DNA of 17,129 nt, from the UHGV virus genome UHGV-0039940, one strand, 5' to 3'. Position 1 is the first letter of the stretch; every line of letters starts with the position of its first letter. Shown piece after piece: positions 10,586-14,684 of this stretch. The position numbers were made by a program, and so were the translations under genes. Below the pieces are notes generated by a model, which was not told the origin of the DNA, made no database searches, and saw only the letters and a program-made list of their open reading frames with translations. The DNA is from a virus.

Positions 10586-10645
10586 TTGACGTGATGATTT
10601 ATTCGGGGCTATATTCCTCACGCGCCAGCAAAATCTGGCGTCGGG

Positions 10646-10845
10646 ATTAGGAACCCCGGATAGAAACCGCGACAGAGACACGCCGCGAGCGTGTTTTTTA
10701 TTGTCGTATGCACACGCACATCTGAATTATGGTGGGGCGTATAGGGGAGCTGAAAAGCTCGCCGGTTGGTTTCCCGGTAGTTCCTAACCCTGTACGTCTC
10801 GCCACCCGATGATTAGGAACCTGACGGTGGTGATAGTTTAGAAAC
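10646..10845 (+). promoter_or_regulatory. Repeat-containing leader upstream of the ORF6N-like gene (ttaggaacc motifs in direct and inverted orientation)
   Basis: gattaggaacc at 10646-10656 and 10811-10821, inverted gttcctaacc at 10780-10789; tagaaacc at 10661-10668 and 10838-10845; candidate promoter TTGTCG (10701-10706) / AATTAT (10725-10730). Confidence 0.4.
10678..10700 (+). terminator. Rho-independent terminator after ninE
   Basis: ACACGC-cgcga-GCGTGT followed by TTTTTTATT. Confidence 0.6.
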
Positions 10846-10862
10846 CACTCGAGGGCGTCATT

Positions 10863-11546
10863 ATGACAACTCAAGTTTCTGTTGAAACACTCTCCACGAT
10901 TACTTACAAGCAGATCCCCGTTATCACTACCGAACTTTTGGCGCACCTTTACGGCACAGAAGCTATTCGTATTCGCCAGAATCACCACGAAAACAAAGGT
11001 CGTTTCATTGAGGAAAAACACTTCTTCAAACTTGAAGGTGAAACTTTACGTGAGTTCAAGCACAGAGTAGCTTTTAACTACTCTGTGAAAATTGCCCGTA
11101 ACGTTCGCTCCCTCATCCTATGGACAGAACGCGGCGCAGCCCGTCATGCAAAAATGCTCGAAACCGATCGGGCGTGGGAAGTGTTCGAAAAACTGGAAGA
11201 CTGCTATTTCAGCCAGTGCGAGAAAAATACTGGCAAACAAGAGAAGAAGCCCAACGGGCTTTCCGCAAAAGAAACAGACAGCCTTGTATGGCTGTGGGAT
11301 TATGCCAACCGCTCACAGGCATTGTTCCGTGAGTTGTATCCCGCATTAAAACTGATTCAGTCTGGCTATTCCGGCATATGCCACGACTACGGCTATGAGT
11401 TCTCGTATATCATCGGGAGGGCGAGGGGCGTTTTAATTAATCACACGCGGGATATAGATATTTATGAGCCTGACGGGCCGACGAACCTTCTGGCATGGGA
11501 AAGGCTTAAGAACAAAGAGTTGCCGCCTTCACTGCATCGCTACTGA
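10863..11546 (+). CDS. ORF6N-domain-like protein (antirepressor-associated family), terminator-bracketed moron
   Basis: 227-aa ORF with GAGGG RBS; N-terminal part (...[50 protein letters not shown]...) resembles the ORF6N domain as I recall it; flanked by terminators at 10678-10700 and 11563-11590. Confidence 0.6.
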
Positions 11547-11562
11547 CAATTGACAACTTAAC

Positions 11563-11590
11563 AAACCCAGCTTCGGCTGGGTTTTTTATT
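11563..11590 (+). terminator. Rho-independent terminator after the ORF6N-like gene
   Basis: CCCAGC-ttcg-GCTGGG followed by TTTTTTATT. Confidence 0.7.
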
Positions 11591-11620: not shown

Positions 11621-12343
11621 ATGAATGAGCTGATAAATAGCAACGTCATCAAAATGACAAGCATTGAAATCGCTGAGTTGGTGGGAAGCCAACACGGTAA
11701 TGTCAGAATATCAATAGAACGTCTGGCAAAGCGTGGGGTGATTCAACTTCCTCCAATGCAAAAAGTTGAAAATAAACAAACAATTAGCCCTAACAAATTC
11801 ACAAGCGTGTATATATTCGAAGGCGAACAAGGTAAGCGAGACAGCATTATTGTCGTCGCTCAGTTGTCGCCGGAATTCACCGCTCGTCTTGTTGACCGTT
11901 GGCGAGAACTCGAAGGGGCAACCGCGAAAATACCACAAACCTTTTCTGAGGCATTGCGCCTTGCGGCCGACCTTGAAGACCAGAAGGCTGAACTGGAGAA
12001 ACAGCTTGCTCTCGCAGCACCTAAAGTTGAGTTTGCCGATCGCGTTGGCGAGGCCAGCGGAATTTTGATTGGAAACTATGCAAAGGTTGTTGGAATTGGT
12101 CCAAACAAACTGTTTGCGTGGATGCGCGATCACAAAATCCTTATTACTTCAGGTGCCCGGCGCAATGTGCCAATGCAGGAATATATGGAGCGCGGCTATT
12201 TCACAGTGAAAGAAACAGCGGTCAACACAAATCACGGAATACAGATATCGTTCACCACAAAAATCACCGGGCGTGGTCAACAGTGGCTGACCAGAAAGCT
12301 GCTCGATAACGGAATGCTGAAAGTAACAGGGGAGGCTGCTTAA
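11621..12343 (+). CDS. roi: Rha/KilA-C family regulatory protein (Roi-like, antirepressor family)
   Basis: [48 protein letters not shown]... (ATG at 11621, 7 nt after GAGAGGA; alternative ATG at 11615); N-terminal Rha-like and C-terminal KilA-C-like segments as I recall HK022 Roi-type proteins. Confidence 0.65.
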
Positions 12344-12991: not shown

Positions 12992-13510
12992 ATGGGCATA
13001 AGAGAACTAAACCTCACCAAAGAACAGCACGATTGGCTGAATGGCTGGCTTGAACTGTGGGGCGCATGGGTTTATTCAGGTCGTCTGGAAAAGCGCATGA
13101 GCAGCGTAATAGCGAAGTTCATGGAGAGCGTAGAGCCGGGAAGAGTTATGACAAGACCAATGTGTAATGATGATGATGGAATGTTGATTTCTCAGGTCGT
13201 CGATTCCGTCATGTACATTGACAAGAAAGCCTTTGGCATCCTCCTCAGCTACTACGCTCATGGTTCATCTAAGAGAGCAATTGCATCCTACTATCACGCG
13301 ACTGCAAAGCCACGCAAGATGTGTGGACGCGGTGGCGAGGGATGGAGAAAACCTTCACTGGCAACCTGTAGAAACGAAATTGACGATATCCTGAAAGCGT
13401 CATTATTTGTTTTGTACCAACCAATGCAAAATGCTTTCAAAATGCGTAAACGTGTTGAGAAAGTTAAGCATGTTGCTGTTAAAAGCCTTGACATGCAATT
13501 AGCCATTTAG
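12992..13510 (+). CDS. Late-gene antiterminator Q (Q82/QuuD-like family, not lambda Q type)
   Basis: 172-aa ORF after AAGGGAGA; LELWGAWVYSG...RPMCNDDDGMLISQVVD...LLSYYAHGSS echoes the WGAW...RPQCCDDDAMII...LLVDYYV pattern of QuuD-type antiterminators as I recall them; position after ninG fits Q. Confidence 0.7.
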   Translation: MGIRELNLTKEQHDWLNGWLELWGAWVYSGRLEKRMSSVIAKFMESVEPGRVMTRPMCNDDDGMLISQVVDSVMYIDKKAFGILLSYYAHGSSKRAIASYYHATAKPRKMCGRGGEGWRKPSLATCRNEIDDILKASLFVLYQPMQNAFKMRKRVEKVKHVAVKSLDMQLAI

Positions 13511-13599
13511 CCATAATTAGAGGGTAAGCTGCCGTTAGTGACTCTTAAGTTGCAACGGTGGCTTTTTTTATTTGGGTCAGTCGTATAAAGGTCATTACG

Positions 13600-13648
13600 G
13601 AAGGCTGTTAACCTTCTTATCGTGGTTCGATTCCCGCTACCCGCTCCA
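13600..13648 (+). other. tRNA-like fragment (3' two-thirds of a decayed tRNA: anticodon arm with GUU, T-loop, CCA)
   Basis: Anticodon stem-loop gaagg-CTGTTAA-ccttc (13600-13616), T-loop G-TTCGATT-C (13625-13633), CCA at 13646-13648; T-stem and acceptor stem do not close and no 5' half pairs. Confidence 0.3.
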
Positions 13649-14409: not shown

Positions 14410-14648
14410 CAGGGTATCAGTTACCCGTTGAAATTTTTAAATACCTCACAATTCAGGCGGTTGACTGTTGTCTGGTTTGCGGGGAGTTTGTTAAAAGAAA
14501 CTGGCATGGTGAATCCCCCTGTGCGGAGGGGCAATCAGCAACTGGTGTTTTGTCACCGACCCTTATCCTTTCTGTGCGGGTTCAGGTGCTGATACTGAAC
14601 TCACCGGGAGGCACCCGGCACCATGCAATGGCACATAGCGCCACTCTC

Positions 14649-14684
14649 CAGCCCCTCTCCGGAGGGGCTGTTTATATTGATTTT
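14649..14684 (+). terminator. Strong rho-independent terminator
   Basis: CAGCCCCTC-tccg-GAGGGGCTG followed by TTTATATTGATTTT. Confidence 0.6.

Follow-up and report, generated by a model that had tools for sequence, protein, structure and literature searches.

A P1 c4/IsrK-Type Antisense RNA Leader Precedes an Antirepressor Gene in the nin Region of a Lambdoid Escherichia coli Prophage

Organization of the Module Between ninE and ninG

The 17,129-nucleotide (nt) stretch of the virus genome UHGV-0039940 analyzed here (the window, whose numbering is used throughout) harbors a module inserted between ninE and ninG of a lambdoid Escherichia coli prophage. The module comprises a promoter, a leader matching three Rfam RNA families, a gene for an antirepressor-type protein and a closing terminator, all on the plus strand. 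A preliminary description of the sequence had viewed this interval as a terminator-bracketed moron with a repeat-bearing leader and an ORF6N-like gene. Its placement agrees with the Pfam assignments, which put NinE upstream and a Roi-like gene followed by NinG downstream, and no NinF domain was found by Pfam in the interval between NinE and NinG.

A sigma-70 promoter was predicted with the −35 hexamer TTGACG at 10586–10591, an 18-nt spacer and the −10 hexamer TATATT at 10610–10615 (10 of 12 positions matching). These hexamers align with the annotated −35 and −10 of the P1 promoter P1c4 (P51b) as well as with the Gifsy-1 isrK promoter TTGACA…TATATT. Among related loci, a promoter match at the same fixed distance, 31 nt from the end of the −10 hexamer to the a1 site described below, was present in 38 of 95, as against 0 of 98 in a coding control. 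No promoter-like site was detected in the 160 nt between the first terminator and the antirepressor gene; the only one, at 10586–10615, lies upstream of that terminator, which the preliminary description had missed. An imperfect 11-nt inverted repeat (10565–10575/10614–10624, 82% complementary) brackets the promoter and could be either a regulatory site or a chance occurrence.

Downstream of the promoter, the Rfam family c4-a1b1 (RF03163) matched positions 10609–10662 with 47.8 bits against a gathering threshold of 46.7, directly 5′ of the C4 RNA. The family isrK (RF01394) matched 10622–10699 over its full length (model positions 1–77; 70.1 bits against a threshold of 50). The IsrK-like short RNA so delimited consists of a 5′ hairpin (10622–10641), a hairpin carrying a1 (10642–10658), a single-stranded b1 segment and an intrinsic terminator, and its predicted fold has an energy of −27.6 kcal/mol (z = −2.6). 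This first terminator has a stem at 10674–10698 with a G+C core at 10678–10694 (ACACGC/GCGTGT) and a U run extending to 10699, as given by both the Rfam isrK model and the minimum-energy fold, in agreement with the hairpin proposed earlier at 10678–10700. It is situated 63 nt 3′ of the −10 hexamer, within the transcription unit.

The C4 antisense RNA family (RF01695), to which P1 c4 and Gifsy-1 STnc1160 belong as homologues, matched 10725–10809 on the plus strand only and scored 66 bits (threshold, 45; model positions 1–87). The mature C4 was predicted at 10731–10806 by alignment with the annotated 77-nt C4 of P1, and the GGU at 10731–10733, a putative RNase P site, aligns with the annotated 5′ end of P1 C4; excision by RNase P at this GGU would be expected by analogy with the homologues. 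The minimum-energy fold of the window C4 (−43.8 kcal/mol, z = −5.0) coincides with the Rfam model structure, i.e., three helices formed by a long closing stem, a tetraloop hairpin and a hairpin bearing the b′ segment. In an alignment of 69 sequences, 97.4% of the cells were paired as against 33–53% in slid controls, and double changes were seen on 16 of the 27 pairs, so that the fold covaries. Both the IsrK hairpins and C4 are retained when the 264-nt leader is folded to minimum energy. That C4 folds like a tRNA was discarded, as ARAGORN finds no tRNA. The downstream leader alone (10810–10880) has no significant structure (z = −0.17), and hence an intrinsic hairpin hiding the ribosome-binding site was not supported either.

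The gene at 10863–11546 codes for a 227-amino acid (aa) protein with an ORF6N domain (Pfam, E = 1e-19), as noted earlier, and in addition a P22_AR_C domain (E = 3e-24). It matches PHROG 377 “anti-repressor Ant” (E = 6e-85), it is named “phage antirepressor Ant” in RefSeq, and its N-terminal 126 aa are 67% identical to AnrP (STM2616) of Gifsy-1 (BLASTP, E = 3e-55). The product is therefore referred to as Ant; it is of the antirepressor type, and activity against a repressor is expected from its homologues. A minus-strand open reading frame (10698–11021, 107 aa) that overlaps both C4 and ant and has no Pfam match was treated as spurious. The module is closed by a second intrinsic terminator at 11563–11590, also recognized earlier, with a 9-bp stem (11563–11584), a UUCG loop and a U run (−15.1 kcal/mol, z = −3.9). 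The gene is thus flanked by its own promoter (10586–10615) and 3′ terminator as an autonomous unit. This part of the earlier description stands, whereas bracketing by two terminators does not, the first being the IsrK terminator within the unit.

Recognition Sites in the Leader

The sequence TTAGGAAC occurs in the leader at 10647–10654 and 10813–10820 in direct orientation and at 10780–10787 in inverted orientation, as the preliminary description had observed. These three matches in the window compare with 0.39 expected, and three were reached in 1 of 200 shuffles. The direct copies extend to the 11-mer GATTAGGAACC (10645–10655 and 10811–10821). A second repeated motif that had been overlooked, TAGAAACC, is located at 10661–10668 and 10839–10846 and is complementary to the C4 hairpin loop TTGGTTTC (RNA UUGGUUUC) at 10766–10773.

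The matches to Rfam, P1 and Gifsy-1 identify the inverted copy as the a′ segment of a C4-type RNA and the direct copies as its targets. The a′ segment, GUUCCUAA, occupies the unpaired junction of C4, and the b′ segment UGGUUUC lies at 10767–10773 in the hairpin loop. The upstream target or decoy a1 (TTAGGAAC, 10647–10654) forms the loop of the second IsrK hairpin and aligns with the annotated P1 a1; b1 (GAAACC, 10663–10668) is complementary to the C4 loop. The downstream targets are a2 (TTAGGAAC, 10813–10820), in the leader of the ant mRNA, and b2 (GAAACCA, 10841–10847), which takes a position equivalent to b2 of P1 and of Gifsy-1. Both direct copies can pair with a′ over 8 nt each, as had been pointed out before, and the arrangement is antiparallel; b′ pairs with b1 over 6 nt and with b2 over 7 nt. 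The a2 site lies 3 nt beyond the Rfam C4 match and 6 nt beyond the predicted mature 3′ end, while b2 ends 3 nt before the Shine-Dalgarno sequence GAGGG (10851–10855) and 15 nt before the ATG, so that it abuts the Shine-Dalgarno sequence without overlapping it. Rather than arbitrary alternative pairings, as first proposed, the repeats are the a′/a1/a2 and b′/b1/b2 recognition elements of a processed antisense RNA of the C4 type.

Conservation and Covariation Across Related Loci

The folding and covariance analysis that had been suggested for the leader was extended to related loci. A search pattern built from the invariant core positions of C4 only retrieved 120 viral contigs with 111 unique loci. 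The a′ and b′ segments were found to be highly variable, with about 70 distinct combinations in 126 sampled C4 copies. Nevertheless, a perfect complement to a′, 7 nt or longer, was present upstream in 88% and downstream in 97% of the 111 loci, as against 6% in swapped controls. For b′ the corresponding values were 57% upstream and 86% downstream, with 3–5% in swapped controls. A terminator-like hairpin between a1b1 and C4 was seen in 76 of 98 related loci, and b2 ended at a median of 9 nt before the downstream start codon. The genes 3′ of these leaders are of the antirepressor type, from several families, and code for ORF6N/P22_AR_C proteins (23 loci, including the window), for Rha, Bro-N, AntA and KilA-N proteins and, in some cases, for small open reading frames.

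The leader of phage PA2 is 96% identical to that of the window, and the same specificity was considered for it. This was rejected, as the alignment revealed coordinated differences at the a sites: TTAGGAAC/GTTCCTAA in the window corresponds to TTCGAAC (a1, a2)/GTTCGAA (a′) in PA2, i.e., a1, a′ and a2 have changed jointly while the b sites are unchanged. The PA2 copy (KP682371.1; L125, 1400–1740, ∼5 kb from the start of the record) resides in another neighborhood, beside a HigA gene and another antirepressor gene. Separately, three tandem 656-bp units were found on the minus strand of IMGVR_UViG_2671181028_000005 (L035, 9700–11270), each combining matches to IsrK and to C4 with an open reading frame of a ∼128-aa Rha-like family. 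The a′ and b′ segments differ in each of the three units, which form an array of differently addressed C4 modules.

The published “orf45” corresponds to a frame that begins at a conserved AUG at the 5′ end of C4 (10729–10812 in the window; 34076–34210 on the minus strand of the Gifsy-1 sequence, L123). In the window it comprises 27 codons with its stop at 10810–10812, 50 nt before the ant ATG. The frame has 14 codons in P1 and from 14 to more than 200 across related loci, and its stop falls within 10 nt of the downstream start in merely 4 of 92 of them. Owing to this variation, translational coupling through orf45 is not a conserved part of the system.

Comparison With Characterized Systems

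The P1 GenBank record annotates the promoter P1c4 (P51b), a1, b1, the 77-nt C4, a2 and b2, followed by icd and ant. Window positions 10586–10870 (285 bp) could be aligned end to end with this stretch at 75% column identity; it is mainly at the a and b sites that the two diverge. The leader is homologous to P1 immI in the promoter hexamers (−35 and −10), the two 5′ hairpins, C4, the Shine-Dalgarno sequence and the ATG, all of which were in register. The two C4 RNAs score alike (66 bits in the window, 68.8 in P1) and carry at their 5′ ends the GGU that is the RNase P site of P1, the a1, b1, a2 and b2 sites take like positions, and an antirepressor gene lies downstream in both. Spacing is similar as well: 16 nt separate a1 and b1 as against 14 in P1, 28 nt separate a2 and b2 as against 29, and a2 lies 3–6 nt past the C4 3′ end as against 3 nt past the annotated end in P1. 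On the other hand, the recognition sequences differ and the Ant protein belongs to another family. The window has no icd, so that C4 directly precedes the antirepressor gene, and neither a C1 operator nor a second promoter (P51a) was evident in the window. The P1 hairpin between b1 and C4, which has a U run, is weaker (35 bits on the isrK model) than the strong terminator of the window, and P1 b2 overlaps the Shine-Dalgarno sequence, whereas b2 of the window stops short of it. In P1, RNase P releases C4 from a longer transcript by cutting at the GGU of the 5′ end of the closing stem, and the 77-nt product is active in trans; its b′ loop covers the ribosome-binding site, a′ confers specificity and Ant synthesis is repressed (PMC5320573; PMC8546580).

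The Gifsy-1 region isrK-STnc1160/orf45-anrP-isrJ has a collinear leader with the same promoter and an identical IsrK terminator sequence. All three Rfam families (c4-a1b1, isrK and C4) were found there between Q and STM2616 (AnrP), in the order IsrK (a1b1), C4-type RNA, a2, b2 and the GAGGGCGTCATTATG start region, and the module is likewise closed by a terminator; the ORF6N N-terminal domain shares the 67% identity given above. In contrast, the a and b sites (TTGGCGT/TCACCG in Gifsy-1, TTAGGAAC/GAAACC here) differ at all sites, the C-terminal domain of Ant is different (P22_AR_C here) and the window has no match to isrJ. The orf45 frame of Gifsy-1 ends on the anrP start codon, whereas that of the window, shortened to 27 codons, ends before the ant start is reached. 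Also, the Gifsy-1 module is located 3′ of Q and not between ninE and ninG.

The Gifsy-1 isrK promoter gives rise to a short, terminated IsrK and to a read-through mRNA that is translationally silent (Hershko-Shalev et al., 2016; PMC4825925). The short IsrK supplied in trans raises anrP translation more than 100-fold, and the mutations G28A and G31A in the a1 hairpin of IsrK behave, with the compensatory changes C162U and C159U, as a base-paired helix (PMC4825925). By Rfam, C162 and C159 fall in the a′ region of C4. A stable, processed STnc1160 accumulates 3′ of IsrK, and expression of AnrP induces the prophage (PMC4825925); both IsrK and STnc1160 are abundant in lysogens (PMC7067206).

Two further systems share parts of the design. 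In P4, a processed small RNA (CI) lies between two complementary targets, seqA and seqC, on the same transcript and serves immunity, and the IsrK authors cite this arrangement as a structural analogue (PMC4825925). CI, however, causes transcription termination and controls replication genes, and the likeness is one of layout, for which no homology is claimed. In the P22 immI region (Mnt, Arc, sar), an antirepressor with a related C-terminal domain, P22_AR_C, is under antisense-RNA control, but sar is made from the opposite strand of the ant leader, whereas the antisense RNA of the window is encoded on the same strand, 5′ of its target. No match to sar was obtained in the Rfam searches of the window, and no arc- or mnt-type genes adjoin ant, its neighbors being NinE and the Roi-like gene.

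Proposed Regulation and Alternative Explanations

Taken with the P1 and Gifsy-1 data, the leader very probably functions as an RNA immunity module of the immI type (P1 c4/Gifsy-1 IsrK), in which C4 blocks translation of the antirepressor and the a1b1 RNA titrates C4. Processing and the direction of regulation are assumed to follow the homologues. Transcription would start near 10622 from the promoter at 10586–10615, and most transcripts would end at the first terminator (10699), yielding an IsrK-like RNA of ∼78 nt with a1 in a hairpin loop and b1 directly after it. Read-through transcripts would carry C4, which could be excised by RNase P (5′ end at the GGU, 10731) to a three-helix RNA of ∼76 nt. 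Its a′ (GUUCCUAA) and b′ segments would pair with a2 and b2 just 5′ of GAGGG and leave Ant untranslated in the lysogen, and the a1 and b1 copies of the short RNA would compete for C4 and relieve repression, either in trans or in cis on the long transcript. The second terminator would insulate the Roi-like gene, ninG and Q from the module promoter in the lysogen. The phage encodes N, and during lytic growth N-antiterminated transcription from the early promoter would pass both terminators.

Several observations weigh against this reading. As b2 does not overlap the Shine-Dalgarno sequence, falling 3 nt short of it and 15 nt from the ATG as compared with the family median of 9 nt, occlusion of the ribosome-binding site is something we infer rather than something evident in the window. 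The b1 pairing is merely 6 nt long, and pairing at a1 beyond the 8-nt core requires a 1-nt bulge. Whole-RNA energies from RNAduplex did not separate cognate from non-cognate C4 targets among the window, Gifsy-1 and P1; with C4, the a2b2 region scored no better than shuffles (182/500) and IsrK mildly better (31/500). The method was uninformative here, as it ignores the intramolecular fold of C4 and G+C-rich RNAs always pair. Expression and processing of the RNAs of this module, and action of Ant on a repressor, are presumed by analogy with the homologues. Finally, the published model of Gifsy-1 activation invokes alternative structures in cis and a coupling of anrP translation to that of orf45 (PMC4825925), and the orf45 step cannot apply unchanged to the window, in which the frame stops well before ant.

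The cis structures lead to an alternative in which the leader is purely a cis-acting switch: alternative folds, a1b1 with a′b′ or a′b′ with a2b2, would hide or expose the ribosome-binding site of ant without an excised C4. This corresponds to the alternative RNA pairings of the preliminary description and to the structure A/B portion of the Gifsy-1 model. All the elements are indeed on one transcript, and the middle of IsrK (10641–10670) can form a near-continuous duplex of ∼30 nt with the a′/b′ region of C4 (10760–10793), which matches helix b-I of Gifsy-1, backed by compensatory mutations (PMC4825925). That helix, however, would have to unfold the strongly conserved and covarying C4 structure, which the minimum-energy fold of the leader keeps together with the IsrK hairpins, and the trans activity of the 77-nt P1 RNA and the stable processed STnc1160 of Gifsy-1 speak against it. 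A cis switch is compatible with the immI-type mechanism and not exclusive of it, but as the sole explanation, leaving the conserved excisable fold unaccounted for, it is unlikely. We consider a predominantly transcriptional role of C4, like that of P4 CI, still less likely; here C4 would pair with a1/b1 or a2/b2 on the nascent RNA and thereby stop transcription, either at the IsrK terminator or through Rho within ant, instead of blocking ribosomes. A terminator does separate a1b1 from C4 in the window and in most related loci (76/98), but b2 is found beside the start codon almost throughout the loci, which speaks for translation as the primary target. For P1, Biere, Citron and Schuster reportedly found in 1992 that translational repression of icd leads to premature termination 5′ of ant; transcriptional polarity of this kind would be a consequence of translational repression and no alternative to it. 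The Gifsy-1 authors raised a transcriptional role with the P4 seqA/CI/seqC analogy, yet constitutive STnc1160 did not lower IsrK-mediated toxicity (PMC4825925). C4 may have a P4-like termination role as a secondary effect.

The preliminary description had left it open whether the repeats serve RNA pairing or as a protein-binding operator. The covarying fold and the experiments on homologues bear out RNA pairing. Operators for an autoregulating protein, such as the ORF6N or the Roi-like protein, would fit the direct and inverted 8-bp copies in the promoter-proximal leader, the DNA-binding folds of ORF6N and KilA-N-type domains and, taken alone, even the coordinated change of all copies. But the inverted copy is part of a structured RNA that is conserved, and within it falls precisely on the unpaired junction. 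Moreover, leaders of this build stand before genes for unrelated proteins (Rha, Bro-N, AntA and KilA-N) and small open reading frames, for which a single pair of protein and operator cannot account, and the P1 and Gifsy-1 experiments assign the function to RNA, so that a protein operator is unlikely to the point of being negligible. A strand-specific comparison of G·U with A·C among the mismatches flanking the pairing seeds, which bears on RNA pairing versus a DNA operator, gave 19 A·C and 3 G·U; these represent too few independent events, nearly all stemming from one constant feature, the 1-nt bulge (GGGAUU against AACCC) at a1. It is also highly improbable that the module is a classic moron, i.e., host-benefiting lysogenic-conversion cargo unrelated to phage regulation. 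It has the autonomous promoter and terminator of such cargo and a variable position, being found in the nin region here, after Q in Gifsy-1 and near int in PA2. Its gene, however, is of antirepressor families, the Gifsy-1 homologue AnrP triggers prophage induction and the RNA elements are shared with the immunity system of P1. The module is a phage immunity and induction module, to which the earlier term moron does not apply in the sense of a lysogenic-conversion gene.

Flanking Genes and Other Elements of the Window

By Pfam, the upstream flank of the module codes for NinB, a Dam methylase and NinE, and the downstream flank for a Rha/KilAC protein, NinG and Q. The remainder of the window is a lambdoid early region with RecT, the cIII thermosensor, N, an S24-type repressor (5448–6170), Cro, CII, O, P and Ren. 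The Rha/KilAC gene (11621–12343, plus strand, with the start taken from the RefSeq annotation) is a second antirepressor-type gene with a Rha N-terminal domain and KilAC (Pfam ANT, E = 2.5e-32; PHROG 63), and its homologue in phage Nil2 is annotated as Roi. As it lies 3′ of the second terminator, this Roi-like gene is probably outside the C4-controlled unit.

Other elements were observed in the window. A full-length match to the lambda cIII thermoregulator element (2140–2198, minus strand, 88.5 bits) confirms that the leftward early operon is lambda-like. An open reading frame at 2410–3093 (minus strand), situated in this operon between N and cIII, carries an Nmad5 (nucleotide-modification-associated) domain (E = 2e-70). 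About 1 kb 3′ of the Q gene (12992–13510), Rfam STnc100 matched 14475–14679 (plus strand) over its full length with 137.6 bits (threshold, 47) and probably marks the leader or an early-terminated RNA of the late operon. A weak Rfam tRNA match directly after Q (13574–13643, plus strand, 32.6 bits; threshold, 29) is possibly the remnant of a degenerate tRNA; ARAGORN reported no tRNA in the window.

Distribution and Biological Significance

The P1 system has been in the literature since 1990, and IsrK was described between 2008 and 2016. The c4 and c4-a1b1 motifs followed in 2010 (PMC2864571). As these RNA families have long been described, the element of the window was already known; the repeats and genes noted earlier represent a correct observation of a known, ordinary element, common in E. 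coli prophages, whose identity was not recognizable from the letters by themselves, and not of a new kind of element. It becomes explicit from the comparison that Gifsy-1 IsrK/STnc1160 and P1 a1b1/c4 represent one and the same system, the two being still listed separately in a 2025 review. The main value lies in annotation. E. coli NCTC9112 carries a stretch with 100% identity to the module, for which RefSeq gives “phage antirepressor Ant” but annotates no RNA; in the RefSeq records inspected, Ant is named without the RNAs, whereas the leader codes for two small RNAs that probably govern whether Ant is produced.

The module was found in 1241 of 5426 complete E. coli genomes, with a median of 2 places per genome and up to 7 copies, and it matched 267 phage records, mostly of Shiga toxin (Stx) phages. 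Its presence in about a quarter of the complete E. coli genomes and in many Shiga toxin phages makes it relevant to prophage induction and toxin release. Tentatively, given the many a′/b′ combinations, the coordinated three-site differences between near-identical leaders and the tandem arrays of differently addressed units, the a and b segments may form a combinatorial RNA “address code,” by which co-resident prophages gate their antirepressors independently or cross-talk, with each IsrK-like RNA serving as a dedicated sponge for its own C4. The module would then be an SOS-independent RNA toggle of induction that needs no orf45 coupling. If such a code exists, lambdoid prophages sharing one E. 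coli cell would either keep control of their antirepressors separate from one another or communicate deliberately through these RNAs.

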